Translations under genes and position numbers: made by a program | In this document: piece by piece, positions 4,074-60,501 of the stretch | Layout: each line of letters starts with the position of its first letter | Numbering within the stretch: position 1 is the first letter of the stretch | DNA from: Bacteroidia bacterium | GTDB taxonomy: Bacteria > Bacteroidota > Bacteroidia > UKL13-3 | Direction: 5' to 3' | Length of the DNA stretch: 64,000 nucleotides | NCBI GenBank assembly: GCA_041665785.1 | Contig: JBAYIE010000006.1 | Coordinates: forward strand, 38,021-102,020 | The notes under the pieces: generated by a model | What the model was told of the DNA's origin: nothing | The model's database searches: none | The model's input: the letters and a program-made list of their open reading frames with translations, nothing else

Positions 4074-4118
4074 GGAGGTATGTTGAGTAGCGCATATAAT
4101 TAAGTTAGTGGCAATTTT

Positions 4119-4709
4119 ATGAAAACTCTCATAAAGACATTTATTCTAATTTTAACTCTTGGCTTTACTGCACAAGGACAGACCAAGGATGTTCCTCTAT
4201 TTGACGACTATTCAATTATTAATAGGACTGTTGACAGTTTACTGAAGATCGGAACTAAAGAAATAGTCGTTTTTCAAACAACAAGACCATTCAAATATTT
4301 AAAAAGTTCGGACAGCATACTAACATTTATTTGTTGGCAAATCGCTGACAATTCTATCGTACAAATCGTTACTGATAAAATTGTTTACTCACCTCTTGAC
4401 TTTAATGGCAAAGAGATATTCACCTACAAAGACAAAATTAAAACACTAGTAACAGAGAAGGAAGAGAGCCAATGTACCTTGCAAATGATTGCTCCTGTTA
4501 TCAGCGGTAACGTCTTGTTTTATTATAGCAAAGAGCTCATTGGATACTTTGAGCACCCAGAGTCAAATAGTCCAACTAGGTATAAGCCACAGGTTGACAA
4601 AGAAAAATACCGATCTACTTGGTACAACTTAATCTATAATGTACTGACAAAAGAAAACTTTAATTTCAAAGGCCTTCCTAATTACGACAGAAGTGCCGGC
4701 TATAAGTGA
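4119..4709 (+). CDS. Hypothetical secreted protein or lipoprotein in an AT-rich islet.
   Basis: Signal peptide MKTLIKTFILILTLGFTAQGQ. GC is about 35%, well below the flanks. I recognise no domain. Confidence 0.5.
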   Translation: MKTLIKTFILILTLGFTAQGQTKDVPLFDDYSIINRTVDSLLKIGTKEIVVFQTTRPFKYLKSSDSILTFICWQIADNSIVQIVTDKIVYSPLDFNGKEIFTYKDKIKTLVTEKEESQCTLQMIAPVISGNVLFYYSKELIGYFEHPESNSPTRYKPQVDKEKYRSTWYNLIYNVLTKENFNFKGLPNYDRSAGYK

Positions 4710-10689: not shown

Positions 10690-10975
10690 GCAATAGTGCA
10701 TCTCCGCATGATGCAGCACAACTCCGAACGATGTAGCGCATCTCCGAATGCGCGATTCCTTTCACTACAATGTTGTAGGTGTATCATTTCTCTCCCCACG
10801 TCGCGATGTTCAACCGCGTTGCGGTTTTTTGAGGAGGGGGTGTCACGTGCGGGTTATGGAGGTTGAACCGCGTTGCGGTTATGGGTTTGTTGTTGAGTGT
10901 AAGGTTAGCCCGCCTTCGCCAAAATCTTCGGCGAGGCAATGCATTCTTCATTCTTCATTCTTCATTTTAAACCCA
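10690..10975. repeat. Composite intergenic repeat locus 1: paired GCATCTCCG hairpins, two AACCGC-GTT-GCGGTT hairpin boxes and a (CATTCTT)n microsatellite box.
   Basis: gcatctccgcatgatgc and gcgcatctccgaatgcgc hairpins. tgttcaaccgcgttgcggtt and atggaggttgaaccgcgttgcggtt boxes. ggcgaggcaatgcattcttcattcttcattcttcatttt box. The same boxes recur at three other loci in the window. Confidence 0.7.
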
Positions 10976-13803: not shown

Positions 13804-13829
13804 ACTTAAGGCAAATCTGATTGAAGAAT

Positions 13830-13940
13830 GAATAATGAAAAATTAAGAATGAAAAGTTAAATTTCTTCATTCTTCTCACCGTCGCTTCGCTTTGGCGACA
13901 CAAAGCATTCTTCATTCTTAAATTTCTCATTCTTCATTTT
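13830..13940. repeat. Composite intergenic repeat locus 2: GGCGAC-CATTCTTCATTCTT microsatellite box.
   Basis: tcgcttcgctttggcgacacaaagcattcttcattcttaaatttctcattcttcattttt, plus reverse-orientation gaatgaa runs. Lies upstream of the PLP enzyme gene. Confidence 0.6.
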
Positions 13941-24339: not shown

Positions 24340-24850
24340 GAAATGCATTCTTCATTTTTCCCGCCGCCGCTGCGCTATGGCGAGGCGAGGCATTTTTCAT
24401 TCTTCATTTCATGTCCCGACAGCAGGGCTAGTCAGTCTTCGTTAAAGCTACTACCGGTCAAGTTCGCTATAGCTATGGCGAGACAAGGCATTTTCTCACC
24501 TCGCGTTGTTCAACCGCGTTGCGGTTGTGGGGTCTTTTCTTCGCATAGAGTTATGGAGGTTGAACCGCGTTGCGGTTTGTCGGGGCATGATCTGAATTTA
24601 AAGGGATAACATAACGCATTAACGAATATGCGATTCATATTGCCCAACATCGTTTTGGTGAGATGAGTCAGTCTTCGCTATAGCTTCGACAGAACAAATC
24701 CATCTACGATAAAGCTACGGCGAGGCAACGCATTCTTCATTCTTCCCGCCGCCGCTAAGGCTTTGGCGAGACAAGGCATTTTTCCCTCCTACGCTAATGC
24801 TACTGTGGACAATGCATTCCTCATTTTTAATTCTTCATTTTTAATTTTAA
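24340..24850. repeat. Composite intergenic repeat locus 3: two CATTCTTCATT + CCCGCCGCCGCT + GGCGAG boxes flanking two AACCGC-GTT-GCGGTT hairpin boxes.
   Basis: gcattcttcatttttcccgccgccgctgcgctatggcgaggcgaggcattttt. tgttcaaccgcgttgcggttgtgg. atggaggttgaaccgcgttgcggtttg. gcattcttcattcttcccgccgccgctaaggctttggcgagacaaggcattttt. Confidence 0.7.
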
Positions 24851-26159: not shown

Positions 26160-26715
26160 ACAGGTACGTCGCGATGTACAACCGCGTTGCGGTTGGATGT
26201 CACGTCAGCTGCCTACGCCATCTGTTATTGAGGTGAAACCGCGTTGCGGTTAGTTGCTGCTGGCTATGGTTTCAGCTATTGGGTGAGATATAGCATTACG
26301 ATCAGTTGCTTGCTATCTTTGGCTTCGGTTATTGAGGTGTAACCGCGTTGCGGTTAGTTGCGGTTAGTTGCTGCTGGCTATGGTTTCCGTAAGCAGAGTG
26401 ATATTGCGTTACGATTAGTTGCTCGCTTACTTTGGCTTCGGTTATTGAGGGGTAACCGCGTTGCGGTTTGTTGAGGTTAGTTGCTGCTGGCTATGGTTTC
26501 CGTTAGCAGAGTGATATTGCGTTGCAATTAGTTGCTTGCTGTCCTTAGCTTTTGTTATTGAGGTGTAACCGCATTGCGGTTAGTTGCATCGTTGCATAAT
26601 GATAGATTATGAATCGTTTCCTTCCCCTGCACTTCGGTGAGGCGATGCATTCTTCCCGCCGCCGCTAAAGCTACCGCGGGCAATGCATTTTTCATTCTTC
26701 ATTCTTCATTTTCTC
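26160..26715. repeat. Composite intergenic repeat locus 4, including a ~3.4-copy tandem array of ~105-119 bp units (26223..26590). Each unit carries the AACCGC-GTT-GCGGTT hairpin. The locus ends with CCCGCCGCCGCT and (CATTCTT)n boxes.
   Basis: Units begin gttattgagg(t/g)g(t/a)aaccgcgttgcggttagttgc...gctgctggctatggtttc...gatattgcgtt(a/g)c(g/a)attagttgct...ctttggcttcg. Terminal gatgcattcttcccgccgccgctaaagctaccgcgggcaatgcatttttcattcttcattcttcatttt. Confidence 0.75.
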
Positions 26716-32603: not shown

Positions 32604-33179
32604 TTATTTATACAACCGATGTGCTTCGATGAATTCCTCTACTTTTTCAGGCACCAGATATTTGATGGATTTGCCGGCCTGTATGGTTTCGCGGATATAG
32701 GTGGATGAAATATTCAGCAAAGGAACTTCAAACACATGTATTGCGGGATGATTGGACAGCAATGGATTTTCATGATATCCTGCACGCCGGTAAACATATA
32801 CCTGATGTTCTTGCAGGATCTCTTCATAATTCTTCCACAAATGAAAAGTTTGCAGGTTATCGCCTCCGATGATCGGAAAAAAAGCATCTTCCGGAAATTG
32901 TGTGCGCAGAAACTTCAGGGTATTCGCTGTGTAAGATGGGCGCGTCATGGCAAACTCCACTTCACTCGCTGCAAAACGTGTATCGTGCCCGATGGCCAGG
33001 TTGATCATCTCAAGCCGCATGTTTTCATCTACCAATACATCGTTTTCTTTAAACGGATTTTGCGGCGAAAGCACAAACCAGATCTTATCCAATCCGCCAA
33101 ACTCAATGAAATAATTGGCAATGAGCAAATGCCCTGTATGAATCGGATTAAACGAACCAAAAAACAAACCGATCTTCAT
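32604..33179 (-). CDS. nadD: Nicotinate-nucleotide adenylyltransferase.
   Basis: MKIGLFFGSFNPIHTGHL (HxGH nucleotidyltransferase motif) and ISSTYIR. Confidence 0.85.
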   Translation of the reverse strand: MKIGLFFGSFNPIHTGHLLIANYFIEFGGLDKIWFVLSPQNPFKENDVLVDENMRLEMINLAIGHDTRFAASEVEFAMTRPSYTANTLKFLRTQFPEDAFFPIIGGDNLQTFHLWKNYEEILQEHQVYVYRRAGYHENPLLSNHPAIHVFEVPLLNISSTYIRETIQAGKSIKYLVPEKVEEFIEAHRLYK

Positions 33180-33736
33180 TTCAAAAATGCATTAACCAGA
33201 TGTTCCGCTTCGCTCAGCGCATCTTCGAGTATCACATTGTGAATTACCTTTTCGAATTTGTCTTCGTAAGCCAGTTCATGAATGGCTTTATCTATACGCA
33301 TACGCAAGGTTTCTTCAGTCTCGGTTGATCGGTATCGCAAACGTTCTTCCAGCACTTTTATACCCGGTGGTTTAACAAATATTACCAATGCTTTATCGCC
33401 GAAATACTGCTTAATGTTCAAGCCTCCTTCCACATCAACATCAAATATGACGGTCTTCCCCAGATTCCAGATCCGAACCACTTCCGACTTCAGCGTACCG
33501 TAATAATTCCCTCCGTATACTTCTTCGTATTCCAGAAACTCATCGCGGGCAATGCGTTCCTTAAATTCTTCTAACGTAAAAAAATAATAATCTTTGCCAT
33601 GCACTTCGCTGGGTCTTTTCGGACGTGTACAGGCACTTACAGAAAAAGCCAGACGCTCGTCGAGCGACAACAGATGCTTTACAATGGTGGTTTTACCCGA
33701 CCCCGACGGAGCACAAAATACGATTGCTTTACCCAA
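33176..33736 (-). CDS. gmk: Guanylate kinase.
   Basis: IVFCAPSGSGKTT P-loop. Overlaps nadD by 4 bp. Confidence 0.9.
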   Translation of the reverse strand: MGKAIVFCAPSGSGKTTIVKHLLSLDERLAFSVSACTRPKRPSEVHGKDYYFFTLEEFKERIARDEFLEYEEVYGGNYYGTLKSEVVRIWNLGKTVIFDVDVEGGLNIKQYFGDKALVIFVKPPGIKVLEERLRYRSTETEETLRMRIDKAIHELAYEDKFEKVIHNVILEDALSEAEHLVNAFLK

Positions 33737-33828
33737 AATTATGTGGTTGAATTGGGGTACGAATTACGGGGTCAACGAGCCGAATTACAAGCGATGAATG
33801 AGAACTTCGGAAATTTATTTAGAAATAA

Positions 33829-34262
33829 TTACGAATGACGAAGTACAAAGTACGAAGTAGCTAAGCCTGGAACTTGTCCTTAATTTAGATCTATCTCTTA
33901 CCAGAGGACTATCATAATTACGAATTACAAATTACGAAGTACGAAGTGGCTAAGCCTGGAACTTGCCCTTAATATAGATCTTTCTCTTATTAGAGGATTA
34001 TCATAATTACGAAGTACAGATTACGAAGTACGAAGTGGTTAAGCCTAGAACTTGTCCTTAATTTAGATCTTTCTCTTACCAGAGGATTATCATAATTACA
34101 TAATTACGAAGTACAGATTACGAAGTACGAAGTGGCTAAGCCTGGAACTTGTCCTTAATTTAGATCTTTCTCTTATCAGAGGATTATCACAATTACATAA
34201 TTACCAAGTACGATGTGGTCACATCCGGAAACTTGGTCTCATTTTCGATTTATCTCTTACAA
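33829..34262. repeat. Tandem direct repeat array: 4 good copies plus 1 degenerate copy of an ~85-98 bp unit containing TACGAAGTACGAAGTGGCTAAGCCTGGAACTTG.
   Basis: Units acgaagtacgaagtggctaagcctggaacttgtccttaatttagatctttctcttaccagaggattatcataattac repeat with a few substitutions. Sits between gmk and a four-helix-bundle gene. Confidence 0.8.
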
Positions 34263-34270
34263 ACTGAGAA

Positions 34271-34639
34271 TCACTGCTGTTTGTTTCTACTTTTTCGAAT
34301 GGATTGAATGGATTTTACAACAATTGCCAAAAACTCTTCATACGCTTTTGTAAGCTCAACGATTGAGGATTCTAATGCGGGAAACCTTGCTTTCAAAATG
34401 AAAAGAAAATGGATCGTTTCATCGGCTTCCTCCTCAACAATTTTATACTTATTAAGAAAATCAGCCTTAGATTTCGCTCTGCGTGTAGCCCGGAAATTGG
34501 AAGCAACAGAATTTGATGATCGCGTTATTTGCTTTACTATTTCATTATCTGATGTCCGGAAAGGGATATGATCCGTTAGCTCCATTACCTGCAATGCAAG
34601 GTTTCGGGTAAGGTCCATCCATTCATTTATGGTTCTCAC
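34271..34639 (-). CDS. Four-helix-bundle protein of the 23S rRNA intervening-sequence protein / Avd family.
   Basis: 122 aa, all-helical (EWMDLTRNLALQVMELTDHIP...SNSVASNFRATRRAKSKADFLNKYKIVEEEADETIHFLFILK). Closely resembles the TIGR02436-type four-helix-bundle proteins. Confidence 0.7.
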   Translation of the reverse strand: MRTINEWMDLTRNLALQVMELTDHIPFRTSDNEIVKQITRSSNSVASNFRATRRAKSKADFLNKYKIVEEEADETIHFLFILKARFPALESSIVELTKAYEEFLAIVVKSIQSIRKSRNKQQ

Positions 34640-34754
34640 AGGCTTTAATAAATTACTAAATAACCTGATTAACCCTACTCTTCAAAACGAATATTAGAGT
34701 TCCCGACTATCCATTCACAAATAACATAATTAACTGATTTCTTACTCTCGCAAC

Positions 34755-35130
34755 TCCACTTTCCACTTCGTAATTTGTACTTCGTAATTCCAAACCCTTC
34801 CCCGTGACCAAAAGGCCCTAACTTAGCACCCATTCATTAGCGGGCCCACTTCGTAATTGGTAATTGGGTTAGTAGTTATTTTGTTATTTAATTCAGGCAT
34901 TCTGGTAAGCCACTTCGTAATTTGTACTTCGTACTACTTAGTTCGTACTTCCATTCCCGTGACCAAAAGCCTCTAACCTTTGCACTCATCCACATGCGTA
35001 CCCACTTCGTACTTCGTAATCCGTCATTCGTACTTATATTCCCGTGACCAAAAGTCCCTAACTTAGCACCCATTCGTTAGCGAGCCCACTTCGTACTTCG
35101 TAATCTGTACTTCGTACTTTTTAATCCGTA
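34755..35130. repeat. Tandem repeat array of 3 copies: TTCCCGTGACCAAAAG(G/T)CCCTAACTTAGCACCCATTC(A/G)TTAGCG(G/A)GCCCACTTCGTA(A/C)TT. Shares the CTTCGTACTTCGTA motif in inverted orientation with the 33829..34262 array.
   Basis: Three copies keyed on cccgtgaccaaaag. taagccacttcgtaatttgtacttcgta is the reverse complement of tacgaagtacgaagtggcttag in the other array. Confidence 0.75.
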
Positions 35131-35133
35131 CTT

Positions 35134-36003
35134 CTAAATTACATTATTTATCTGTTCCTTAATCTTCTCCAACTCATCCTTCATCTCCACCACCCGTTGC
35201 TGAATTTTAAAATGATTGGCTTTAGAACCCATGGTATTGATTTCGCGGCCCATTTCCTGTGCAATAAATCCGAGCTTTTTACCCGATGATTTCATACGCA
35301 TGGTTTCCAGAAAATACTGGCAATGCTGGATCAGGCGTGTACGCTCTTCGGTTACATCAAACTTCTCAATATAGTAGAGCAGTTCCTGTTCGAAACGGTT
35401 TTTATCATAAGAAGCTTCGCTGATCTGTTGCAGCTCCTGATCAATTTTGGTGCGCAATGCATCGATACGTTCCGGTTCCAATACTTCTACTTCTTTCACA
35501 AGTTGGATAATTGCCTGAGTCATACGGTTCAGTTCATCCGACAACATCTCCCCTTCTTTGATTCTGAACTTTTCAAATTCTACAAAGGCTTTGTTCAACA
35601 CATCCATCAGTATTTTCATGTCCTCTTCGCGGTTCTCATCCACCGTTTGTTGAAACAGGTTGGGAAGACTCATGATGTTTTGTACAATATTTTCCGTTCC
35701 CAGGTTAAATTCCTTCACCACATTGGTCAATTCATTGAGGTAGTAACGGGCTACATCTTTGTTGAGCGGTAATACTTTGTCTTCGGCCAGTTTGAACACC
35801 ACATTTACGTTAACCTGACAAGATCCGCGTTCCACAAGGCGATTCAACTCCTTACGCACCTCGGTCTCCTTGTTTTGCCAACCTTTGGGAAGGCGCAGGT
35901 TCAGTTCCAGAAATTTGTTGTTCAGGGACTTGAATTCCACTTTAACGGCAAACCTTTCGGTTTCCAGTTCGGCTTGTCCAAAGCCGGTCATCGATCGTAG
36001 CAT
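35134..36003 (-). CDS. yicC: YicC family stress-induced protein (YicC/RNase AM family).
   Basis: MLRSMTGFGQAE...KSLNNKFLELNLRLP N-terminal signature, plus a C-terminal DUF1732-like helical region. Confidence 0.85.
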   Translation of the reverse strand: MLRSMTGFGQAELETERFAVKVEFKSLNNKFLELNLRLPKGWQNKETEVRKELNRLVERGSCQVNVNVVFKLAEDKVLPLNKDVARYYLNELTNVVKEFNLGTENIVQNIMSLPNLFQQTVDENREEDMKILMDVLNKAFVEFEKFRIKEGEMLSDELNRMTQAIIQLVKEVEVLEPERIDALRTKIDQELQQISEASYDKNRFEQELLYYIEKFDVTEERTRLIQHCQYFLETMRMKSSGKKLGFIAQEMGREINTMGSKANHFKIQQRVVEMKDELEKIKEQINNVI

Positions 36004-36083
36004 GTGTCAGTATTTTAAACAAATGTAGGGGAAAGGTCAGAATGTTTACCAGTAATTTCAGGCAAGAATGAAGCGGAAATTTT

Positions 36084-47639: not shown

Positions 47640-50600
47640 CTACCGGTTGATGACGATCCGTTTGTTGGTTACCGAGTTATCTATTCTCAAATTGATCCAG
47701 TAAACTCCCGACGACTGACCTGATAAATCAAGGTTGAAGGAGCCGGCATTCAGTTCCTTCTCTCCTTTATAAATCACTTTACCCAAAACATCGACCACCT
47801 CTATGCTTACCCGGAATGCAGCTATATCTTGTAACGATACGGTTACATGACCATCTCCGCTTGGGTTTGGATAAATCCTGGCTGCATTCAAAAGATCTAA
47901 ATCCATCAATCCGCTCTTGATGAAATTGAATGCATCGCTGATGCTTTTGCAATTGGAGGCATTTCCTGTTTCCACCGAATAATTACCATTTTGCGTGGCA
48001 ATCAGATTTTTTGAATTTGCACCACTTATGTTGTTGCCATTCAACTTCCACTGATAGGTTGCGGCAGTAACCGAACACACTAATGTATCGCTGCTGCCAT
48101 TGCGTGTAACAACCGGTTTAACCGGAAGTACATCAATTGTAACAGTTAGCGAAGCTGTTGTATCGGTGGAACAACCGGTATGCACAAGCGCCCTGTATTG
48201 ACGGGAAACAAATGCCGAAACAGTGGTGTTGGTATGTGTATACATTTCATTCGCACTTCCTGCAATAGGTATCCAACTACCCGCATTGTCTTTGAAAATC
48301 CAACCGGTTACAACTCCTCCGTTGATAAAACCACTTGCAGTAACTGCAATGGAATTTCCAGTACAATAAATTGTTGCAGTCGAAGTTGGAACCACGCTGT
48401 TCGCATTCCCCTGCAATTGGGGGTTGATGGTTATCTGCAATGTTCCGGTTGTATCGTAACTGCAGTTAGCGGTATTGAATATAATGGCCCGGTATTCACG
48501 CACCTTGGTATACGAAACATTGGTTGAAGTATGATAGAGAGTGAAGCCGTTATCGTTTATCGCAGTCCAGAAGTTCGCAACGCTGTCGCGGAACAACCAC
48601 TTTACAACACTGCCCGAAAATCCACTTACATTAATGATGGCCGGGGTACCTGCACAAATTGAAGTGTTGTTGCTGGCCGGCATAATAGCGAGATTACTTC
48701 CGTTGGTTATAATATTGATATTTACCGTTACCACTCCAGAACTATCGATGCTACAACCTGAAGTATTGTTCAACAAGGTGCGGTATTCACGGATTATATT
48801 GCTACTTACCTGTGTATTGAAATCATTGATTGATGCAGCGCTACCGGCATTCAGGTATTGCCATTCTTCTCCGGTATTCCGGAACAACCATTGCTGAATG
48901 GTATACCCAACAGGAGTATTGATAAATACATTCACCGGGTTGCCTGAACAAACAGTCAGCTGAGATGCCTGAGCCGTTGTGGCATTCACTCCATTTTGTA
49001 TCGGGTTGATGGTAACAGTGGCCGGTGCAGTGGTATCAAAACTGCATCCGGAAGAATTGATTACCAGAGCTCGGTATTGACGCACAAGCAATGAAGAAGT
49101 CTGGGTATTTACATCACTCCACGATGAAGAAGTAATATTTAAGATTTGCCAGTTATCGGTTGGATTATCGCGGTACATCCAGTATTTCACAGATGATCCG
49201 TTGAATGATCCCAGGGTGATGGTAACCAGTGCACCTGAACATACATTACTATTAGATAAAGCAGGAACAACAGTATTTTGGTTACCATATCCAATCGCAC
49301 TAACATTCACTCCAACGGATGCAGAGGTATCGGTGGGACAACCTGCACCTTTAACAACTACCACTTTATATTGGCGGGTAAATCCAGTGCTGGTTTGTGT
49401 AGCATAATCGTTGAGCGAAGTGGCTGATGTAATGGCCAGATTTGTCCAGCCTCCATTGTCTGTATTCTGCATCCAGCGTTGAATGGAATTGCCACTTCCC
49501 GGATTAACGCTGAGGTTAATCGTAGCACCTGAACATATGGACGTGCTGGCCACTGCAGGAACTATCGTATTATCGATCCCGATTGTACGCGGATTGATGG
49601 ATACGGTCTTAACGGCACTGCTGTCCATACTACAACTGTTATTGTTTTTTATGATAATACGGTACGCTCTTGTTACCGGTGCACTCACAGTAGTATTGTA
49701 ATCCGTTAAAGTTGTCGCACTTCCTGAGTACAAAGTCATCCATGGACCATTGTTGTTGCTGTATAACCAGGATTGTACCGTATGACTTCCTAGACCTGAG
49801 GTTCCTAAAATTACCGGAGTACCGGTACAATATGATCCACCATTTGAAGTCACCATGATATTGGTATCTGTGCCGAGCATACGGGGAGAAATAAAGGCTG
49901 TATCGTTGATGGAAGTTGTATCATACCGGCAACTTGCTGATTTGTAAATCAACAATGCATATTGCCGGTTAATGGCATTTGTCGTATTGGTATTGTAATC
50001 GGTTATGCTGATGGAGTACCTGTGCATATTGTTCCATGCTCCGCTGTATCCATCGCGGTACAGCCAGGTGTTTAATTGTACACCACTCAATCCATATGCA
50101 TCTACATCAATGAAGGAGCCGGTACAAACTCCCTTATTGCCATTGATTGCTGTGCTCGAAAACGTATCGGTTCCGTATATTAATGGATTGATATATACTG
50201 ACACTTCACCGGAAGTATCAAGCGTACAGGAGTTGCTCTTGCTTATTATTGCACGGTACCTGCGGTTCACCAGACTCACCGTATTTACAGACTGTATGAT
50301 GCCCGACAAAGAACTATACATAGGAATCCATGGACCTAAATCTTCACTGTATAACCAGTATTGTACAAAATTGCCCGATCCGGCATTTATATTGATATTG
50401 AATGAATTCCCTGAACAAACATTAGACCCTGATTGTGAAGTTGGAACAATGCTGTTGTCGTTTCCGTATGTTTTCGGATTAATGGTAATTACAGATGCCG
50501 CGGTGGTATCGATCCGGCAATTGCCCGCTTTATACAAAATAGCGCGATAACCCATTGTATAGGAGTTTTGTTGTGAAGCAGCAAACTCACCAAATTGATA

Positions 50601-53600
50601 ATTGGTGACCGGAGTAATATATCCTCTGTCTATCCAGTTTCCTCCGTTAAAATTATACAACATTCGGATAACAGTGGTATCCGATGCAACATTCATCGAA
50701 ACAGTATAATTCATGCCCATACAGGTTGATAGTGGTACTACCGGCGATCTTGCATTGTTATTTCCCAATACAACAGGATTGATGGTTACGGTAAGTTTTG
50801 CAGTTGTATCTAAACGGCATGTGGAATTGTTGTTGATGATGGCTACATAATCGCGTGTAACGGTTGTTCCTACATAGGTGTTGTAATCTGAAATATTGTT
50901 GGAATTGCCATTCAATAATACCGTCCACGATTTATTGTTATCGCGCGAGAGCCATCGTACAATTGAATTGCCACTTCCTGCTGTAACTGCAATGCTTTGA
51001 ACAGGTGAGCCGGCACAAACATTTACAGAGGTAGCGGTTGGAACTTTTGAAATATCCGTACCTGCAATTTTTGGAGAAATGGTAATGGTTACAGCATTCG
51101 TAGTGTCGTAGCTGCAATTCTTTAAGAGTATTACTTTGTATTGCCGGGTGGTTACATTGCTGAAATAGGTATTGTTATCGTTGATACTGGATGCTGAGGT
51201 AACAGAATGCGTAAACCATTCACCATTATTATCCTTGTATAACCAGCGTTGAATGGTAGAACCCGCTACACTTAAACTGATACCAGCGGTATTTCCGGCA
51301 CAGATCGACGCGTTCGTTGTAGTAGGTGTTGCTGCGCTTAATCCTCCGGTATAATTACGTAAGAATACACTATCCATTCGAGTTGAATCAGAAATACAGG
51401 AGCTCGTCGAAACAACAATGGCTCTGTAAAAACGCCAGGTGGAAGAGGCAACTGCTGTATTGGTATGGTTAAAGAATGATGTACTGCTTGAAGGTATTAC
51501 CTGCCAGCTCATTTTATTGTCATCACTGAAGAGCCACCGTTCGATGTAAAAGGAGGTGCTGACGCTCATACTTACAGTGTTTCCGGCACAAACAGTATCT
51601 GCTGAATTCACAAATGCAGCCAATCCGCTAATTCCATAAGTTTTATTTTTAATAAAAACATCTTTTACGCGATTTAGAGTGTCGTAACTGCAGGTGGCTC
51701 CTTTCAATACAATCGCTGTATAGCTCTTAATGGTTCCCGGAGGATATAAGGTCGTATTATCGGTGATACTGGAGGACTGGGTGGAGGAAGTGAAATTCTG
51801 CCAATTGCTTTTGTTAATGGCATACAACCATTTCCAAACAGAATTTCCATTGCCTGGTGATAAACTCAGACCTAAGTTGGTTCCTGCACATATGGTATCG
51901 AAAGCTGATATGCTGATACTGGAATCATTTCCGTAACTGATCGCTTTGATAATTACAGCTACCGCTTGTGTGCTGTCAAAATCACAGGAACTGGTATCAC
52001 TGATAATAGCCCGGTACAACCGCGTAACGGAATTGGAAACTTGCGTTAAATTATGGGTATAAGCATGTACATCTGAATTGTACGCATTCACCCAGGGACC
52101 GGTTACCCCATTGTCGCTGTATGTCCAGCGTTGCACTGTATACACACTGGAAGTTGGTACACTCAGGGAAACCGTAGATCCTGAACACATGGATGTCTTG
52201 TTTGTTGTTGGCAAAATAGCACGGTTACTGATATTCGAACCCTGAGGTTGAATCAATAGGGTTAATGCTGAAGTGGTGTCAGCCTGACACGTATTCGTAT
52301 TGTTTACAATGGTGCGGTATGAGCGGCTGACAGGTTCTGCGACCCATGAATTCAAATCGGTTATTGTACTGTTGGTATTGTTGTTTGTGAACATGTTTCT
52401 CCATTCGCCGTTATTATCGGTAGTGATCCACTTTGCAATCGTGTAACCCGAAGAAATATTTTTCAGTGCAATATCAACGGGTGTTCTGTAACACCAGATG
52501 TTTCGGGTGCTCGAAGGCTGCAAACTGCTGATATTACCACGTACCAATGGACTGATGAGTATATTAACTGCATTGGACGTATCGATGGAACAAGCTACCG
52601 GGTTCGTGATAATGGCACGATAAGCCCGGTTAACCGGACTACTTCCGTTGATATTGTATTCTATAATACTGCTTGCATTCGTTGTATAACCAAAATCTTC
52701 CCAATCGCCATTGTTGGAACTCATCACCCATTTCAAAACCGTTCCGGTATAGGTGCCTGAATTGAGGTAAATTTGCGGCGTTGTACTGCGGTTACATACC
52801 GATGAAACACTGGAGAGAGGCGTTACGGAAACTTGTCCGCGAACACTTGGATTGATAGTCACGCTGTATGCTGTCGATGAATCATAACTGCAAGCATTGG
52901 TATTGTCAACAATCACGCGGTACGACCGGGTAGTTGTAACAGGAACATAGGTATTGGTATGAGAATAAGAATTGGTTGCCGATGATGGAATTTCATTCCA
53001 GGCCCCATTCAGGTTGTCGCGGTAGATCCATCTGCGAACACTGCCTGCAGTTGGCAGCGTATTGGAAATAACATTCACTCCAACCGGTGATGTACTGCAG
53101 AAAATACCGGAAGCAGAAGTAATGGCTACTGCACCAGCGTTTCCTTTTGTGCGTGCATTGATTTGCACGGATACTGCAGCTGTAGTGTCATATGAACAAC
53201 CATTGGTATAAGTAATAGCGCGGTACGACCTTGACGTGTTGGCCAAAACCTGCGTATTGGATTCATAAAAATTGGTTGTTGAACTGGAACTGCTTATTTC
53301 TAACCATGGTCCGGTTTGGTTATTGCGATAAATCCATTTTTGAATATTGTTGCCAACTAAAGAAACATTGAATGTATTGCCACTGCAAATACTTACTGTG
53401 TTAGCAGTAGGTTGCAAAGCCGGAGCATTACCGTAACCATAAGGTTTGAGTTGTACCGACAAAATCTGCGTTGTATCTATGCTACAGGTTCCCTGTCTTA
53501 CCAAAAAAGCACGGTAATCACGATTAGTAGCTGAATTCACATAGGATTTGTTATCATATAAATAGGTTGATGCAGTTGAGCTCGCAAATTCTGACCAGTT

Positions 53601-56141
53601 ACCACCATTGTCGCGATACATCCATTTTTGCACAGACCCTGAATAGTTGTTGAGGTAAACCGTTAAGGTTGAACCTGAACAATTCACTGTTGAATTGGTA
53701 ATTGGAGTGTGCGAACTTGTTGTTCCATTCATCAAGGGTGATAATACCACTGTAACAGCGTTGGAGGTGTCTGTTGTACAGGTATTATTGTTGTTGATTA
53801 CAACTTTATATTCCCGATTGGTTTGAGTCAATACACGTGTTCCTGCCGTGCTTTCGGTGTATGTAAAAGAGGTGCCGGTCAAATTTTTCCAATCACCTCC
53901 ATTGTCGCGCGACATCCACCTAACCACACTAAATCCGCTCAGAGAAGCACAGGTAATTTGCAAACTTGTTCCACTGCATATGGCATTTGAACTGGCTGTA
54001 GGTAAGATATTGGGATTGTTTTGCCCCACACGTTGATTTACCATTAGGGTTATCGATTGCGTAGTATCGTATTTGCACATTCCCTGATTGTAAAGAATTA
54101 CACGGTATGTTTTACTGGGATTATTTGTGCTGGTATAATCACTTGGATTGGTGGAGTTATACCCGAATGCATACCAGTTTTGAGAAGCTAATTCTCTTCC
54201 AATCCAATTGCTTACCGTATACCCGGTTGGCGGTACAATTCCCAGTTGCGTATTGTTTCCATTGCAAATGTCCGACTGCGTGGAGTAGGGAGTTACAGCC
54301 AATGAACCTCTGATTAACGGATTGATCTCCACATGTACTTCATTGGAAGTATCCAGGCGAAGTGTTTCCAGATTTTTTATCAAGGCACGGTAACTGCGTA
54401 TGGTTTGTGAATTCAGGCTTCCTGTATTATTGTCGTAAAAGGTTGTATTGGTTTGTGCAGATAACACATTCCAGTCGCCGGTTTTATTATCGCGATAAAT
54501 CCAACGGCCAATCAACATACCTGTTGGCAGCGAAATGTATCCGCTTACCTGTGCACCAACACAATAGGCTGGTTGGTTGATGATGGGTGTAATATCTGCC
54601 AATCCTCCGGGTGCAGGCAATTTGATCAAAACCTGAACTGCCGGTGTTGTATCTATACGGCATTGAATGGTATTGTTGAGCAATACCCGGTAAGCACGTT
54701 GTGTATTGCTGCTCATGTTGGTATTGTTGTCGGTGTAGGTATATCCTGAACCCAGCTGTACCCAATTGCCGGTATTGTTATTACGGTATATCCAATAGCT
54801 AACCGGTGTACCATCGCTAATCTGCAATTTTACCTGTGCCCCTGCACATACTTCTGTTAATGAGGTTGCGGGAATGGCCTTGTTTGTAATTCCTCTCCGG
54901 TTAGCTCTTACGGTGTAAAAAACCGAAGCTGAAGTATCATAACTGCAATTCAAAGAAGCATTGTTCACCACAGCACGCACTTCACGCGTAAGATCATTTA
55001 AAATATTGCTGTTGCTGGTAAGTGATGCGGTAGTGCTATTGCTGAAATTCGTCCACGGCCCGGTTGCGCTATCTCTGTAATACCATGATCGGGATGATGG
55101 CCCCTGCATTTGAAATGTTTGGTTACTCCCGGCACAAACATCAATCAAACTGCCTGTAATCTGAGGTACCATATTCAACAGATAGCGGCGTTGTGCCGCC
55201 TGAATAAACAAGGAAACTTCATCCGATGTATCAGCACTGCAGGTATTGGAATTCAGGAGTACTACTTTATAACTACGGTTGATTGACGCAGAAACTGCCG
55301 TGTTATAATCGATTGCAGTAGTGGTGGCTGAACTAAAAACATTCCATGAGGTAGCACTTCCATCCCGGTACAACCAGTTGCCGATCTCCATGGGCCATTC
55401 CAATTGTAAACTCACACTGCTTCCCCCGCATATTTGCTGTTGTGTCAAAATCGGTTTAATATTTACATTGTTTCCGGCAACCACCGGATTTATTTGTATA
55501 GCTACGCTTGCTGAAGAATCCAGTTCACATGTAGCCGGATCCTTTACCATAACCCTGAATTCGCGCAGGGTATTGATATTCACATAAGGCATTTGTATGT
55601 TGAGTGATTGGCTGCTGCTGTTGATATACACCATCCAGCTTCCTCCATTATCGCGGTAAATCCATTGCGTTATCTGTGTACCCGCATTCATGATTCTCAA
55701 TGTCACAGTGCTTCCGCCACATGCCTGATAAGCAGAAGCCGATAATGAAATTCCATCGTTGTTTCCATAAGATGGAGGTACCACATTTACATCGACTCCA
55801 TCTGTAGTATCACTTGCACATGAAGCGGTTGTTACAATCGCTCTGAATGTGCGTACGGTTGGCACCGTTTGCGACATATAAAAATTGATATTGTCGCTGT
55901 TGGTATTGTACGCAATCCAACTACCGGTATTATTATCGCGGTAAACCCAACGGGTAACCGGTAAACCAGTAGCATACACGTATACGGTATTGCCCGAACA
56001 AATAGTTTCGTTTGATACGGTTGGTTTATAATTCGCCACTGCTCCACACTGTGCCCACGACGTTCCATAATTGGTCAACAGCAAACCAAAAATCAGCAGG
56101 AAAGAATACACAGATTTAAAAAGGATGTCGAAGTTTTTCAT
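47640..56141 (-). CDS. Giant (2833 aa) T9SS-secreted protein composed of about 27 divergent tandem ~100-aa repeats; probable adhesin or surface protein.
   Basis: Signal peptide MKNFDILFKSVYSFLLIFGLLLTNYGTSWAQ. Each repeat carries W(L/I)YRDN.G.W, R.YRA(I/V) and C..DTS..V.V.I.P motifs (for example WIYRDNKTGDW, WLYKDNNGEW, WMYRDNGGNW). C-terminal IYPNPSGDGHVTVSL...GVYWINLRIDN sorting domain. Confidence 0.8.
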   Translation of the reverse strand: MKNFDILFKSVYSFLLIFGLLLTNYGTSWAQCGAVANYKPTVSNETICSGNTVYVYATGLPVTRWVYRDNNTGSWIAYNTNSDNINFYMSQTVPTVRTFRAIVTTASCASDTTDGVDVNVVPPSYGNNDGISLSASAYQACGGSTVTLRIMNAGTQITQWIYRDNGGSWMVYINSSSQSLNIQMPYVNINTLREFRVMVKDPATCELDSSASVAIQINPVVAGNNVNIKPILTQQQICGGSSVSLQLEWPMEIGNWLYRDGSATSWNVFSSATTTAIDYNTAVSASINRSYKVVLLNSNTCSADTSDEVSLFIQAAQRRYLLNMVPQITGSLIDVCAGSNQTFQMQGPSSRSWYYRDSATGPWTNFSNSTTASLTSNSNILNDLTREVRAVVNNASLNCSYDTSASVFYTVRANRRGITNKAIPATSLTEVCAGAQVKLQISDGTPVSYWIYRNNNTGNWVQLGSGYTYTDNNTNMSSNTQRAYRVLLNNTIQCRIDTTPAVQVLIKLPAPGGLADITPIINQPAYCVGAQVSGYISLPTGMLIGRWIYRDNKTGDWNVLSAQTNTTFYDNNTGSLNSQTIRSYRALIKNLETLRLDTSNEVHVEINPLIRGSLAVTPYSTQSDICNGNNTQLGIVPPTGYTVSNWIGRELASQNWYAFGYNSTNPSDYTSTNNPSKTYRVILYNQGMCKYDTTQSITLMVNQRVGQNNPNILPTASSNAICSGTSLQITCASLSGFSVVRWMSRDNGGDWKNLTGTSFTYTESTAGTRVLTQTNREYKVVINNNNTCTTDTSNAVTVVLSPLMNGTTSSHTPITNSTVNCSGSTLTVYLNNYSGSVQKWMYRDNGGNWSEFASSTASTYLYDNKSYVNSATNRDYRAFLVRQGTCSIDTTQILSVQLKPYGYGNAPALQPTANTVSICSGNTFNVSLVGNNIQKWIYRNNQTGPWLEISSSSSTTNFYESNTQVLANTSRSYRAITYTNGCSYDTTAAVSVQINARTKGNAGAVAITSASGIFCSTSPVGVNVISNTLPTAGSVRRWIYRDNLNGAWNEIPSSATNSYSHTNTYVPVTTTRSYRVIVDNTNACSYDSSTAYSVTINPSVRGQVSVTPLSSVSSVCNRSTTPQIYLNSGTYTGTVLKWVMSSNNGDWEDFGYTTNASSIIEYNINGSSPVNRAYRAIITNPVACSIDTSNAVNILISPLVRGNISSLQPSSTRNIWCYRTPVDIALKNISSGYTIAKWITTDNNGEWRNMFTNNNTNSTITDLNSWVAEPVSRSYRTIVNNTNTCQADTTSALTLLIQPQGSNISNRAILPTTNKTSMCSGSTVSLSVPTSSVYTVQRWTYSDNGVTGPWVNAYNSDVHAYTHNLTQVSNSVTRLYRAIISDTSSCDFDSTQAVAVIIKAISYGNDSSISISAFDTICAGTNLGLSLSPGNGNSVWKWLYAINKSNWQNFTSSTQSSSITDNTTLYPPGTIKSYTAIVLKGATCSYDTLNRVKDVFIKNKTYGISGLAAFVNSADTVCAGNTVSMSVSTSFYIERWLFSDDNKMSWQVIPSSSTSFFNHTNTAVASSTWRFYRAIVVSTSSCISDSTRMDSVFLRNYTGGLSAATPTTTNASICAGNTAGISLSVAGSTIQRWLYKDNNGEWFTHSVTSASSINDNNTYFSNVTTRQYKVILLKNCSYDTTNAVTITISPKIAGTDISKVPTATSVNVCAGSPVQSIAVTAGSGNSIVRWLSRDNNKSWTVLLNGNSNNISDYNTYVGTTVTRDYVAIINNNSTCRLDTTAKLTVTINPVVLGNNNARSPVVPLSTCMGMNYTVSMNVASDTTVIRMLYNFNGGNWIDRGYITPVTNYQFGEFAASQQNSYTMGYRAILYKAGNCRIDTTAASVITINPKTYGNDNSIVPTSQSGSNVCSGNSFNININAGSGNFVQYWLYSEDLGPWIPMYSSLSGIIQSVNTVSLVNRRYRAIISKSNSCTLDTSGEVSVYINPLIYGTDTFSSTAINGNKGVCTGSFIDVDAYGLSGVQLNTWLYRDGYSGAWNNMHRYSISITDYNTNTTNAINRQYALLIYKSASCRYDTTSINDTAFISPRMLGTDTNIMVTSNGGSYCTGTPVILGTSGLGSHTVQSWLYSNNNGPWMTLYSGSATTLTDYNTTVSAPVTRAYRIIIKNNNSCSMDSSAVKTVSINPRTIGIDNTIVPAVASTSICSGATINLSVNPGSGNSIQRWMQNTDNGGWTNLAITSATSLNDYATQTSTGFTRQYKVVVVKGAGCPTDTSASVGVNVSAIGYGNQNTVVPALSNSNVCSGALVTITLGSFNGSSVKYWMYRDNPTDNWQILNITSSSWSDVNTQTSSLLVRQYRALVINSSGCSFDTTAPATVTINPIQNGVNATTAQASQLTVCSGNPVNVFINTPVGYTIQQWLFRNTGEEWQYLNAGSAASINDFNTQVSSNIIREYRTLLNNTSGCSIDSSGVVTVNINIITNGSNLAIMPASNNTSICAGTPAIINVSGFSGSVVKWLFRDSVANFWTAINDNGFTLYHTSTNVSYTKVREYRAIIFNTANCSYDTTGTLQITINPQLQGNANSVVPTSTATIYCTGNSIAVTASGFINGGVVTGWIFKDNAGSWIPIAGSANEMYTHTNTTVSAFVSRQYRALVHTGCSTDTTASLTVTIDVLPVKPVVTRNGSSDTLVCSVTAATYQWKLNGNNISGANSKNLIATQNGNYSVETGNASNCKSISDAFNFIKSGLMDLDLLNAARIYPNPSGDGHVTVSLQDIAAFRVSIEVVDVLGKVIYKGEKELNAGSFNLDLSGQSSGVYWINLRIDNSVTNKRIVINR

Positions 56142-59607: not shown

Positions 59608-59694
59608 CGGAGAGTTGTCAGAGTGGCCGAACGAGCGCGCTTGGAAAGCGCGTATACTGTAACAGGTATCGAGGGTTCGAATCCCTCACTCTCC
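59608..59694 (+). tRNA. tRNA-Ser (anticodon GGA), type II with a long variable arm.
   Basis: ggagagt acceptor stem pairs with actctcc. Anticodon stem gcgcgc / gcgcgt with loop ttGGAaa. TTCGAAT T-loop. Near-identical in architecture to E. coli tRNA-Ser(GGA). Confidence 0.85.
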
Positions 59695-59701
59695 GCAAAC
59701 C

Positions 59702-59730
59702 CAAAATCCCGCTTTTGCGGGATTTTGTAC
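59702..59730 (+). terminator. Hairpin immediately after tRNA-Ser.
   Basis: aaaatcccgcttttgcgggatttt: a 10-bp stem with a 4-nt loop. Confidence 0.55.
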
Positions 59731-59736
59731 GTTAAC

Positions 59737-60003
59737 GAGCACTGCGTCAAAAGCCCCAAAGCTTTTGTAAGCAGGGCGAAGTGAACGTACAACAAATTCC
59801 CGCCTAGGGAATTTGGGTTTGTTTCTCCCCCCAACGGGATCGCGCGCCAGCGCAATCTTTCCTGATTAGTTAGTTTCCGATAGCACTGCGTCAAAAGCCC
59901 CAAAGCTTTTGTAAGCAGGGCGAAGTGAACGTACAACAAATTCCCGTCTAGGGAATTTGGGTTTGTTTCTCCACCCAATGGGATCGCGCGTTAGCGCAAT
60001 CTT
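59737..60003. repeat. Two tandem direct copies of a ~122-bp element (59737..59859 and 59882..60003) downstream of tRNA-Ser.
   Basis: agcactgcgtcaaaagccccaaagcttttgtaagcagggcgaagtgaacgtacaacaaattcccg(c/t)ctagggaatttgggtttgtttctcc(c/a)ccca(ac/at)gggatcgcgcg(cc/tt)agcgcaatctt. Copies differ at about 6 positions. Each contains aattcccgNctagggaatt and aaagc..gcttt hairpins. Confidence 0.8.
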
Positions 60004-60102: not shown

Positions 60103-60501
60103 TCACTTTACCCGGAATCCTAATTCATAACAACTATTATCAGTGGGATTATAATTAAAAGTGCAACCTGAATTCTCCCGATTATTCTTTTTTAGTTTTG
60201 ACTCATCATTATATTTATTTACAGTGTCATAACACTTTCGATTTGAATAAACCATAAAGTAATAAAAAGTAAAGAAGCCGAGATAAGCCAGAGCCAAAAA
60301 AAAAATTATATAATCTCTTTCTACCTGATTGATCGTTTTTATTGAGATCAAAGTCATACCTATTGTTATACTCCAAAGAATAGTAATTATTGTCATAAGA
60401 TTTAGTGCTCCCCAGTGATGCCTATCGTTTTTTAGAAATCGAAAGAAGTCATAACATCTATAATAAAATATATTTAACAATGTCTTCATTTTACCCTTCA
60501 A
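60103..60501 (-). CDS. Small membrane protein (2 transmembrane helices), translationally coupled to the upstream Fic gene.
   Basis: 132 aa with hydrophobic segments LMTIITILWSITIGMTLISI and IIFFLALAYLGFFTFYYFMVY. Overlaps the Fic gene by 4 bp. AT-rich. Confidence 0.5.
   Translation of the reverse strand: MKGKMKTLLNIFYYRCYDFFRFLKNDRHHWGALNLMTIITILWSITIGMTLISIKTINQVERDYIIFFLALAYLGFFTFYYFMVYSNRKCYDTVNKYNDESKLKKNNRENSGCTFNYNPTDNSCYELGFRVK

Follow-up and report, generated by a model that had tools for sequence, protein, structure and literature searches.

A PF05635 gene between inverted heptamer arrays in a yicC-gmk-nadD operon: a candidate intervening sequence of a messenger RNA

To our knowledge, the PF05635/TIGR02436 proteins form a very large family with solved structures and no known function outside DGRs; likewise, where rRNA intervening sequences (IVSs) come from and what they are for have, as far as we know, been open questions since about 1990. 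In the window, by which we mean the whole 64-kb stretch of DNA that was analyzed, a gene of this family lies between yicC and gmk, in the housekeeping yicC-gmk-nadD operon on the minus strand, and is enclosed by two tandem-repeat arrays. What is such a gene doing in a messenger-RNA operon, and how do the repeats relate to it? The features of the locus are as follows.

32604-33179, minus strand: nadD, downstream host gene
33176-33736, minus strand: gmk, downstream host gene
33824..34273, minus strand: downstream (left) array, from repeat comparison
34271..34639, minus strand: four-helix-bundle protein of the 23S rRNA intervening-sequence protein family, 122 aa (PF05635/TIGR02436)
34640..34739, minus strand: non-repeated 100-nt leader, from the innermost upstream heptamer block to the GTG start
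about 34740..35150, minus strand: upstream (right) array, from repeat comparison
35134..36003, minus strand: yicC, upstream host gene (Pfam YicC-like_N/C on the identical locus L165)
36020-36027, just ahead of yicC: TAnnTTTG promoter motif, Bacteroidota-type, from a TAnnTTTG scan

The cassette and its host operon

The 122-aa protein matched PF05635 with an E-value of 1.7e-13 (51.1 bits; cutoff 33.8) and TIGR02436 with an E-value of 7.1e-19 (68 bits; cutoff 24), in agreement with the preliminary description, which had placed it in the 23S-IVS four-helix-bundle family. The family profile retrieved PDB entry 2rld (121 aa, five chains) with an E-value of 2.6e-28 over residues 2-116. Judged by sequence, the protein is predicted to have a single domain, homologous to a solved four-helix-bundle structure. 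A profile search of the PDB at E<=10 yielded, besides 2rld, two designed helical proteins, but none of the Avd chains. As this profile found no Avd and the locus has no RT, the earlier label 'Avd' was dropped. PF05635 proteins are nevertheless Avd-like at the superfamily level (cd16375), and theirs is the commonest Pfam family beside DGR RTs (PMC10053308).

The N-termini of the orthologues, M[KR][TS]I[DN]EW, are in register with the GTG start in the window; we therefore preferred a length of 122 aa over the deposited 115 aa. In comparisons with these orthologues, pN was 0.17-0.29 while pS was saturated. The protein is thus under strong purifying selection, which indicates that it has a job.

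No TAnnTTTG promoter motif was found from yicC to the IVP gene, the 100-nt leader included. A terminator scan revealed no terminator-like site between yicC and gmk, and scans for sigma-70 promoters and terminators gave counts at or below shuffle expectation. According to Rfam, the cassette contains no RNA family (gathering thresholds over the whole window; E<=1 over 33700-35200). The sole Rfam hit was a tRNA-Ser at 59609, and no rRNA was found in the 64-kb window. A Pfam scan of the window's 30 largest ORFs detected no RVT, transposase, integrase or cas domain. These data uphold the earlier statement that RT and rRNA are absent. PADLOC and PHROGs returned zero matches, so that the locus carries no defence-system or phage label.

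The left array comprised four copies of an 89/97-nt unit (about 85-97 nt), 88-100% identical, and a degenerate fifth copy (71%) that is innermost and abuts the stop codon. The right array comprised three copies of a 64-nt core (CCCGTGACCAAAAG...), with spacings of 156 and 84, and one unit without the core. The copy numbers given previously, four good plus one degenerate and three of a second unit, were therefore reproduced, the core-less unit being additional. The right array also held five or six ACTTCGT heptamer blocks, which on the gene strand read TACGAAG/TACAAAT and end in GTGG; of the ~50-nt segments between them, three were copies of GGGCTCGCTAACGAATGGGTGCTAAGTTAGGGACTTTTGGTCACGGG and one was unrelated. 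On the same strand, each left-array unit ended in CCACTTCGTACTTCGTA heptamers, which are complementary to those of the upstream array. TACGAAG-type blocks are thus common to both arrays in inverted orientation, facing each other, as had been proposed. The inverted arms were complementary at 97% over 34 nt and at 84% over 45 nt.

The sequence TACGAAGTACGAAG, with up to two mismatches, matched 17 times in the 64-kb window against 0.2 matches expected, and all matches lay within 33830-35123. A weaker motif copy, previously placed at 1411-1430, proved to be two imperfect heptamers near 1400-1417, at chance level and outside the <=2-mismatch matches. Outside the heptamers, the units of the two arrays were not significantly similar (score of 17 versus a shuffle mean of 13.8 ± 2.4), and one helix alone reached into these parts (15 bp; GCTAAGTTAGGGACTT / AAGTTCCAGGCTTAGC). 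Within each array, the inter-heptamer segments were copies of each other, at 88-100% identity on the left and 64-92% on the right. An independent 970-nt assembly matched the gene and the complete right array at 100% identity and ended inside a left-array repeat; the left-array copy number is therefore that of one metagenome contig. Other repeat families are present in the genome.

Inverted heptamer arms across the gene family

We analyzed 80 homologous loci from many phyla. Period-7 runs occupied 4.4-7.5% of the 150 nt on each side of the gene versus 0.15-0.35% elsewhere in these loci, and heptamer runs were enriched 15-50x within 150 nt of the gene. With a stringent period-7 criterion (28/35), even the arms in the window escaped detection, as their heptamers are imperfect; searching for inverted matches was more sensitive. 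In at least 45 of 73 loci, the best inverted match between the upstream and downstream flanks was heptameric. The upstream arm had the consensus T[A/T]NGA[T/A][T/G] (37 loci) and the downstream arm its complement. Both this heptamer sequence and its orientation with respect to the ORF were conserved, with GA invariant at fixed positions. The arms co-varied within orthologous groups, the group matrices being diagonal-dominant, and the cognate downstream flank had a median rank of 9 out of 77 as partner. One genome (L008) contained two cassettes, both with heptamers of the TTACGAT/TGACGAT type. In a full-text search that covered few subscription journals, we found no literature linking PF05635/S23p genes to flanking inverted heptamers besides the note on the Coxiella IVS discussed below. 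These data establish inverted heptamer arms as a general feature of the gene family. What is local to this locus is their amplification into 85-97-nt tandem units, and the earlier picture of a free-standing module 'with its own repeat architecture' was revised to this extent.

The genes of the family were found in host operons that include his, dcw, pdh, suf and lepA-folD. The host sites, with neighbours named by reading translated ORFs rather than by domain search, were yicC-gmk-nadD, hisH/hisA, mraY/murD, ftsW/murG, lepA/folD and PDH E1beta/E2. Where the two neighbours were co-oriented, the gene lay on their strand in 57 of 61 cases (binomial p about 2e-13), and the gaps to the neighbours were short (median 89 nt on the upstream side and 63 nt on the downstream side). 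Co-orientation with both neighbours was not enriched, at 0.74 versus 0.71 for ordinary gene triples of the same loci; the orientation claim is therefore limited to the 57:4 bias seen where the neighbours are co-oriented. In this respect the gene resembles a member of an operon; that alone does not prove read-through. Going by the order of locus tags, RAYM_06462, a four-helix-bundle gene of Riemerella, sits between RAYM_06457 (HesB/IscA/SufA-family) and sufB (RAYM_06467), and all three appear with similar values in one table of iron-upregulated genes (PMC5609570).

The order yicC-IVP-gmk-nadD was kept in four orthologous loci, none of which had an RVT among the neighbours, while equally close relatives had an empty yicC-gmk gap of 24-108 nt. 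Filled and empty sites thus occur at equal host divergence. In one minimal orthologous cassette (L084), the arms touch the start and stop codons, and no clear target-site duplication was seen by eye at the borders. A second locus (L081) had its own, unrelated upstream array (43-nt x 5) plus downstream inverted heptamers. In a third (L093), the yicC-gmk gap contained an inverted heptamer hairpin without an ORF. A recent foreign insert was considered and rejected: the cassette is a syntenic resident of yicC-gmk-nadD, retained while synonymous sites became saturated.

Predicted RNA pairing and comparison with rRNA intervening sequences

In a minimum-free-energy (MFE) fold of the 1371-nt gene-sense RNA, the arrays formed a four-rung ladder, with 178-182 bp across the ORF. 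The 5' strands of the rungs, all on the minus strand, and their predicted partners are:

35094..35125: rung 1, pairs with 33828-33859, 27 bp
34996..35038: rung 2, pairs with 33913-33955, 39 bp
34912..34937: rung 3, pairs with 34003-34029, 25 bp
34846-34854: extra 9 bp near rung 3, pairs with 34030-34038
34756..34786: rung 4, innermost, pairs with 34105-34135, 28 bp

The cofold energy was -297.7 versus -222.8 ± 5.7 for shuffles (z = -13), in support of the earlier expectation that the two arrays would fold into a duplex around the ORF. The complementary termini of an IVS form a stem of at least about 20-28 bp that encloses the element; here, four ORF-spanning helices of 25-39 bp do so. The 50-nt internal loops set the ladder as a whole apart from classic RNase III substrates, but each 25-39 bp rung is one. 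In the minimal orthologous cassettes L084 and L082, a single heptamer stem closed the ORF in both the MFE and the centroid structure (z = -6.4 for the L084 fold). Mismatches in the arms had no excess of G-U over A-C (17 versus 19), so that the sense RNA is not singled out as the selected molecule over antisense RNA or DNA. The matching of the arms could also be kept by concerted evolution, through slippage or gene conversion, instead of by selection for pairing.

We favour, with a probability of roughly 0.6, the reading that the locus is an IVS-type cassette hosted by an mRNA operon instead of by 23S rRNA, with locally amplified arms. Its core is the conserved PF05635 gene inside two inverted arms of consensus heptamers, the GA strand lying upstream of the ORF and the complement downstream. 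The cassette was inserted between yicC and gmk long ago and, as it has no recognizable promoter or terminator of its own, would be transcribed together with yicC, by read-through from that gene's promoter. In the transcript, the arms would pair and enclose the ORF as a loop. The stem may, by analogy with the 23S IVSs of Coxiella and Leptospira that carry S23p, be a substrate of RNase III, whose cut would release the cassette RNA and part the yicC message from the gmk-nadD message. The arms have been amplified here and, as a separate event, in the closest relative. Units of a heptamer block plus an about 50-nt spacer were probably duplicated by unequal recombination or slippage among the blocks, which would have turned a single stem into the four-rung ladder.

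The 23S IVSs with an S23p/IVP ORF, such as those of Coxiella burnetii (helix 45) and Leptospira, encode proteins of the same family, PF05635, and hold the ORF in the loop of a stem of complementary termini. Like the cassette, they lie within a transcription unit whose flanking parts must keep their function. In Coxiella, the terminal stem of the IVS is 28 bp long and is cut by RNase III in its middle; GACAGAT heptamers, two or three in tandem, precede the S23p start, and the 5' cut falls at the first of them (PMC4990558). Such tandem heptamers, which the Coxiella IVS has though not all IVSs do, stand in the 5' arm just ahead of the ORF here as TACGAAG/TACAAAT. Together with the family-wide comparison, this likeness strengthens the IVS analogy drawn in the preliminary description. 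The two differ in their host, which is an mRNA operon here and an rRNA helix there; the window, having no rRNA, offers no 23S rRNA helix (9, 25 or 45) as a site of insertion. They also differ in their arms, which are five-unit and four-to-six-unit arrays here and a single 28-bp stem in Coxiella. Cleavage by RNase III has been demonstrated for Coxiella and others (PMC4990558) and is proposed for the cassette by analogy. Finally, the Coxiella ORF is decaying and probably untranslated, whereas the ORF in the window is strongly conserved, which suggests a protein function beyond what the IVS model explains.

Long double-stranded stems in operon transcripts are also processed by RNase III in the intercistronic regions of the phage T7 early region and in the E. 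coli rnc and pnp leaders. There, as would be the case here, cleavage separates cistrons; by contrast, those stems are not known to enclose a conserved protein gene or to be made of heptamer repeats.

Alternative explanations and wider implications

An unlikely alternative is that the cassette is a mobile element at the DNA level. Its arms would be terminal inverted repeats for the four-helix-bundle protein, or for a transposase or recombinase acting in trans; the arrays would record insertions or duplications, and the RNA pairing would be incidental. The cassette resembles a TIR element or MITE in having inverted heptamer arms that are missing from empty yicC-gmk sites. The equal host divergence of filled and empty sites also suits such an element, as do the ORF-less hairpin in L093, the symmetry of G-U and A-C mismatches and the scatter of the family over many phyla with close protein similarity between them; the old literature, moreover, proposed IVSs to be remnants of transposition. 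However, the cassettes are syntenic across genera and families despite saturated synonymous sites, and no clear target-site duplication was visible by eye at the L084 borders. The arm sequence drifts between orthologues, whereas the site of a sequence-specific transposase would resist drift. The 30 largest ORFs of the window include no transposase or integrase, although either might be supplied in trans from elsewhere, and the 57:4 orientation with the host operon fits selection on transcripts better than random insertion.

It is also improbable, on the present evidence, that the heptamers serve as reiterated RNA or DNA sites for the pentameric four-helix-bundle protein, in autoregulation or in packaging of its own transcript. 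Such a role could coexist with RNase III processing, and the inverted arrangement and the amplified arrays would then set the number of candidate binding sites. Avd binds nucleic acid, and both Avd and the S23p of Xanthomonas, relatives of the protein, have been described as pentamers, in keeping with the five chains of 2rld. The fixed GA and the ORF-relative polarity across phyla exceed the needs of a bare stem. The use of one heptamer type by both L008 cassettes and the strong purifying selection on the protein are also consistent with protein binding. By contrast, very similar orthologous proteins adjoin different heptamer variants, and heptamer runs are known to expand through slippage with no protein involved.

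A degenerate CRISPR locus, or a neutral satellite of meaningless tandem DNA unrelated to the gene, is very unlikely. The arrays do have a regular repeat/spacer look, with a 35-nt heptamer block and a 50-55-nt segment, the genome contains further repeat families, and '23S rRNA IVP' is listed as an abbreviation in the legend to a figure about CRISPR-linked proteins (PMC10910872). Nevertheless, the 'spacers' are mutual copies (88-96% identity), the motif is confined to the cassette within the 64-kb window and the heptamers are tied to the gene family across 80 loci. A CRISPR array was thus rejected, there being no unique spacers and no cas genes among the scanned ORFs of the window.

Effectively refuted is a degenerate DGR, in which an orphan Avd would have outlived its RT beside decayed template and variable repeats: Avd, too, is small, folds as a four-helix bundle and belongs to the same superfamily (cd16375, PMC10053308), and PF05635 is the commonest Pfam next to DGR RTs, but neither the 30 largest ORFs nor the syntenic relatives contain an RT, the family profile that retrieved 2rld detects no Avd at E<=10, the repeats in 33700-35200 are heptamer-based, non-coding tandem units unlike a TR/VR pair, and dozens of RT-less operons, housekeeping ones as here, have the same layout.

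We return to the reading of the locus as an IVS-type cassette. The design of a gene plus inverted heptamers recurs in housekeeping operons of many phyla, and these cassettes therefore look like mRNA counterparts of the rRNA IVSs that are cut by RNase III. More tentatively, inverted-heptamer PF05635 genes may constitute a widespread, undescribed class, 'intervening sequences of messenger RNAs', that are old residents of essential operons (his, dcw, pdh, suf, yicC-gmk) and undergo excision or insulation at the RNA level. The rRNA IVSs would then be a special case, and the pentameric protein would be the trans-acting partner of the heptamers.

The genome-wide heptamer repeats and inverted heptamer pairs of Xanthomonas, Nostoc and others might, under this tentative proposal, be ORF-less derivatives of this system or extra binding sites for it. 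Over-represented intergenic heptamers have been reported in Xanthomonas (GGGAATC, with about 70 convergent inverted pairs) and Nostoc (GGGGA(C/T)T) (Rehm et al. 2015, PMC4692102). They share with the cassette arms the 7-nt unit, a fit to the nnnGAnn pattern, an intergenic location and, often, the arrangement in convergent inverted pairs; their length varies between close relatives, and no function is known for them (PMC4692102). They were characterized as simple repeats able to form G-quadruplexes, no connection with PF05635 genes was drawn, and most of them enclose no ORF, whereas the cassette heptamers are A/T-rich and not G4-prone.

Because the genes so regularly occupy essential operons, between co-varying inverted heptamer arms of a single conserved type, the vague label 'four helix bundle protein' becomes a concrete and testable candidate for an RNA-processing module. 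The suf cassette of Riemerella and the his and dcw cassettes of Flavobacteriaceae provide test cases in cultured organisms. For annotation, the cassette architecture accounts for repeat arrays beside PF05635 genes that could be mistaken for CRISPR arrays. It may also explain why, as has long been noted, heptameric simple repeats are over-represented in certain bacterial genomes.

The cassette in its operon

The IVP gene, a member of the 23S rRNA intervening-sequence protein family, lies between yicC and gmk and is flanked by two tandem arrays.

Features of the yicC-nadD region
35134-36003, minus: yicC
Between yicC and the 122-aa ORF: repeat region, 494 nt
about 34744-35150: right array, upstream of the gene; a 64-nt core in three copies, plus one odd unit; heptamer blocks number five or six
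34271-34639, minus: 122-aa ORF (IVP gene)
Between the 122-aa ORF and gmk: repeat region, 534 nt
33824-34273: left array, downstream of the gene; an 89/97-nt unit in four copies, plus a degenerate fifth that reaches the stop codon
33176-33736, minus: gmk
32604-33179, minus: nadD

The 122-aa protein matched PF05635 (E=1.7e-13) and TIGR02436 (E=7.1e-19) over the curated cut-offs, and a profile built from 34 homologues matched 2rld, a solved four-helix-bundle protein, at 2.6e-28. These data confirm the family placement made in the preliminary description. Its second suggestion, membership of the Avd proteins, was not supported: the same profile retrieved no Avd chain even at E<=10. A diversity-generating retroelement was excluded, with no RVT domain among the 30 largest ORFs of the window. 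P0001 (115 aa), the deposited protein, begins with the ATG at 34618. Because orthologues align from the GTG at 34639, with the shared N-terminus M[KR][TS]I[DN]EW, the annotated start probably omits seven codons. A motif scan found a Bacteroidota-type TAnnTTTG motif ahead of the cassette only in front of yicC (36020-36027), and no terminator-like sites were found between yicC and gmk. Elsewhere, the window encodes a protein of 2833 aa (47640-56141) that carries a type IX secretion C-terminal sorting domain, and five other Por_Secre_tail proteins, one an Endonuclease I fusion (1527-4073).

In both arrays, the unit starts with TACGAAG-type heptamers followed by GTGG. The left array shows this order on the plus strand and the right array on the minus strand; the arrays therefore face the IVP gene from both sides. 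The heptamer blocks form inverted repeats of up to 34 nt with 97% complementarity, bearing out the inverted motif initially described, while the non-heptamer parts of the left and right units had no significant similarity. With up to 2 mismatches allowed, the motif occurred 17 times in the 64-kb window (0.2 expected). As all 17 matches were inside the module, the weaker copy initially reported near 1400 is noise. The JGI metagenome contig Ga0376277_0001209 was identical to the window, and an independent 970-nt unitig matched the IVP gene and the entire right array exactly, ending within the left-array repeat.

Folding predictions for the gene-sense RNA (1371 nt) placed 182 base pairs across the ORF, in four nested helices of 27, 39, 25(+9) and 28 bp that join successive upstream and downstream heptamer blocks as a ladder. 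The upstream and downstream regions cofolded at -297.7 kcal/mol, against -222.8 +/- 5.7 in sixty dinucleotide shuffles (z = -13). The proposed pairing of the two arrays around the ORF is thus upheld by prediction. The cassette RNA matched no Rfam family.

The 85-97-nt tandem units are best explained by local amplification of a heptamer block with its adjacent spacer, in which heptamer blocks would have recombined unequally or slipped. This reading is favoured because divergence is greatest in the innermost units, the left and right units have only heptamers in common, and the closest relative amplified another unit.

The window also contains other repeats. A second heptamer family, (CATTCTT)n with its complement (TGAAGAA)n, adjoins a GC-rich hairpin, CCCGCCGCCGCT..GGCTTTGGCGAGRCAAGGCATT, at 10930-10966, 13822-13940, 24345-24410, 24730-24850 and 26645-26710; at 13822-13940 an inverted pair encloses the hairpin with no ORF between. 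Possible identities for this family are an ORF-less relative of the arms and a REP-like element in its own right. The palindrome AACCGCGTTGCGGTT, dispersed in intergenic regions (10812-10880, 24508-24580, 26180-26590), gives rise at 26243-26587 to a tandem array (113 nt x 3; TRF score 506) and looks like a REP-type family of this genome. Finally, tRNA-Ser(GGA) (59609-59696) is directly followed by a tandem repeat (59738-60003; 144 nt x 1.8, 95% matches), with a Fic/SoFic-like gene at 60498-61580; the 59609-60003 region could mark the border of an integrated element.

History of the yicC-gmk site

According to a YicC scan, yicC-gmk-nadD is a widely conserved Bacteroidota arrangement, usually with a yicC-gmk gap of 15-50 nt. 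The arrangement yicC-IVP-gmk-nadD also occurs in three other lineages (loci L081, L082 and L084), whose IVP proteins are 61-72% identical to that of the window. Three equally close loci (L086-L088; YicC 68-71% identical) have a 24-108-nt gap containing neither IVP gene nor heptamers; the cassette is therefore inserted in the operon. The insertion is old: synonymous sites are saturated between orthologues (pS 0.73-0.85; pN 0.17-0.29). For the window and L081, dN/dS was ~0.09.

All orthologous cassettes kept inverted heptamers beside the ORF, in differing sequences. The L084 arms are GAATTGGGGATTACGGATTGGGAA, ending 5 nt ahead of the start codon, and TTCCCAATCCGTAATCCGCAATTC, beginning at the stop codon; those of L082 are of the GGATTAC/GGGAATT types. 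In both loci, a heptamer stem closes the ORF in the MFE and centroid structures. A 43-nt x 5 tandem array peculiar to L081 lies upstream of its ORF, and an (AATCCGT)n block lies downstream, with 27 nt at 96% complementarity. In the more distant L093 (YicC 48% identical), an inverted heptamer hairpin without an ORF, CACAGATTTCACAGATT ... ATCTGCGCTTATCTGCGAAATCTGCG, occupies the yicC-gmk gap (2545-2650); the L110 gap has CTCCCnn heptamers. The site seems to have been recurrently occupied by heptamer structures.

Arms and host operons across the family

We surveyed 80 homologue loci from Bacteroidota, Chloroflexota, Planctomycetota, Verrucomicrobiota, Acidobacteriota, Cyanobacteria and others. 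Strict period-7 runs made up 4.4% of the 150 nt upstream of the gene and 7.5% downstream, against 0.15-0.35% farther off. The best flank-to-flank inverted match, typically located 25-100 nt ahead of the start and 0-100 nt past the stop, was heptameric for 45 or more of the 73 loci. Upstream units read T[A/T][C/A/G]GA[T/A][T/G] on the sense strand, most commonly TACGATT, TACGAAG, TTAGATT or TTGGATT. The downstream arm is the complement; heptamer polarity relative to the ORF is therefore conserved. The locus's own downstream flank was the top partner of its upstream flank in 16/77 loci (median rank 9), and cognate scores dominated the pairing matrix of eight orthologous Flavobacteriaceae loci. 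By these comparisons, arm sequences change yet remain matched. In L008, a Bacillota MAG, two IVP cassettes 1.2 kb apart (2900-4300) share one heptamer type, with TTACGAT/TGACGAT arms, and the gene that they flank has a Fic-type HPFxxGNGR motif.

Several locus sets were syntenic across genera.

IVP gene settings (neighbours named from translated sequences, without domain search)
hisB-hisH-IVP-hisA-hisF
murE-mraY-IVP-murD-ftsW
murD-ftsW-IVP-murG-murC
lepA-IVP-folD
PDH E1beta-IVP-E2

Where neighbours were co-oriented, the IVP gene shared their strand in 57 of 61 cases. Median gaps were 89 nt upstream and 63 nt downstream. Fully co-oriented triples had a frequency of 0.74 with the IVP gene and 0.71 for ordinary genes of the same loci. 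Because these values are equivalent, the IVP gene is like a normal operon member and unlike a randomly oriented insert. In L054, between mraY and murD, the arms abut both genes and the murD ATG lies inside the last downstream heptamer (2915-3365); in L082, AATTCCC heptamers of the downstream arm overlap the called gmk start (3774-3835). Since the downstream arm can thus enter the next gene's start, arm pairing could mask translation initiation there. In Riemerella, the four-helix-bundle gene RAYM_06462 has sufB on one side and a HesB/IscA/SufA-family gene on the other, judging by the order of locus tags, and all three appear with similar values in one microarray table of iron-upregulated genes (PMC5609570). 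An F. psychrophilum homologue is listed as down-regulated in biofilm, in a table category shared with ribosomal protein genes (PMC5787105).

A probable IVS-type cassette in mRNA

The most economical reading takes the module for an IVS-type cassette that resides within an mRNA operon. It would be co-transcribed with its host genes, and its arms would pair in the transcript around the ORF and probably recruit RNase III. In the Coxiella 23S IVS, RNase III cleaves midway along a 28-bp terminal stem, and two or three GACAGAT heptamers stand in tandem in the 5' arm ahead of the start codon of S23p, the family's ORF in rRNA IVSs; their copy number varies between strains, and 5' cleavage falls at the first repeat (PMC4990558). 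In the ACAGATG register, GACAGAT fits the nnnGAnn pattern of the cassette arms. Free-standing cassettes and ORF-bearing rRNA IVSs thus have the protein family, the ORF-in-loop layout and heptamer arms in common. In the literature searched, only the Coxiella paper mentioned heptamers beside an S23p ORF; other papers on bacterial heptamer repeats, TAACTGA (PMC4679880) and GGGAATC/GGGGAYT (PMC4692102), do not mention the family.

Two other readings were considered. Arm mismatches were G-U in 17 cases and A-C in 19, so they favour neither selection on sense RNA nor selection on DNA; this balance is compatible with a DNA-level mobile element, which we consider unlikely. The invariant GA and fixed polarity hint at a role for the heptamers beyond filling the stem, perhaps as binding sites for the four-helix-bundle protein, a reading that we likewise consider unlikely. 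A CRISPR reading of the arrays was excluded, with no cas domain among the 30 largest ORFs of the window. In the FLSHclust survey, '23S rRNA IVP' is one of the abbreviations of a figure legend on CRISPR-linked proteins (PMC10910872), an entry that could reflect cassette-like arrays (35-nt repeat, about 55-nt 'spacer') caught by CRISPR finders. The arm pattern across the family is a more interesting result than the module of the window.
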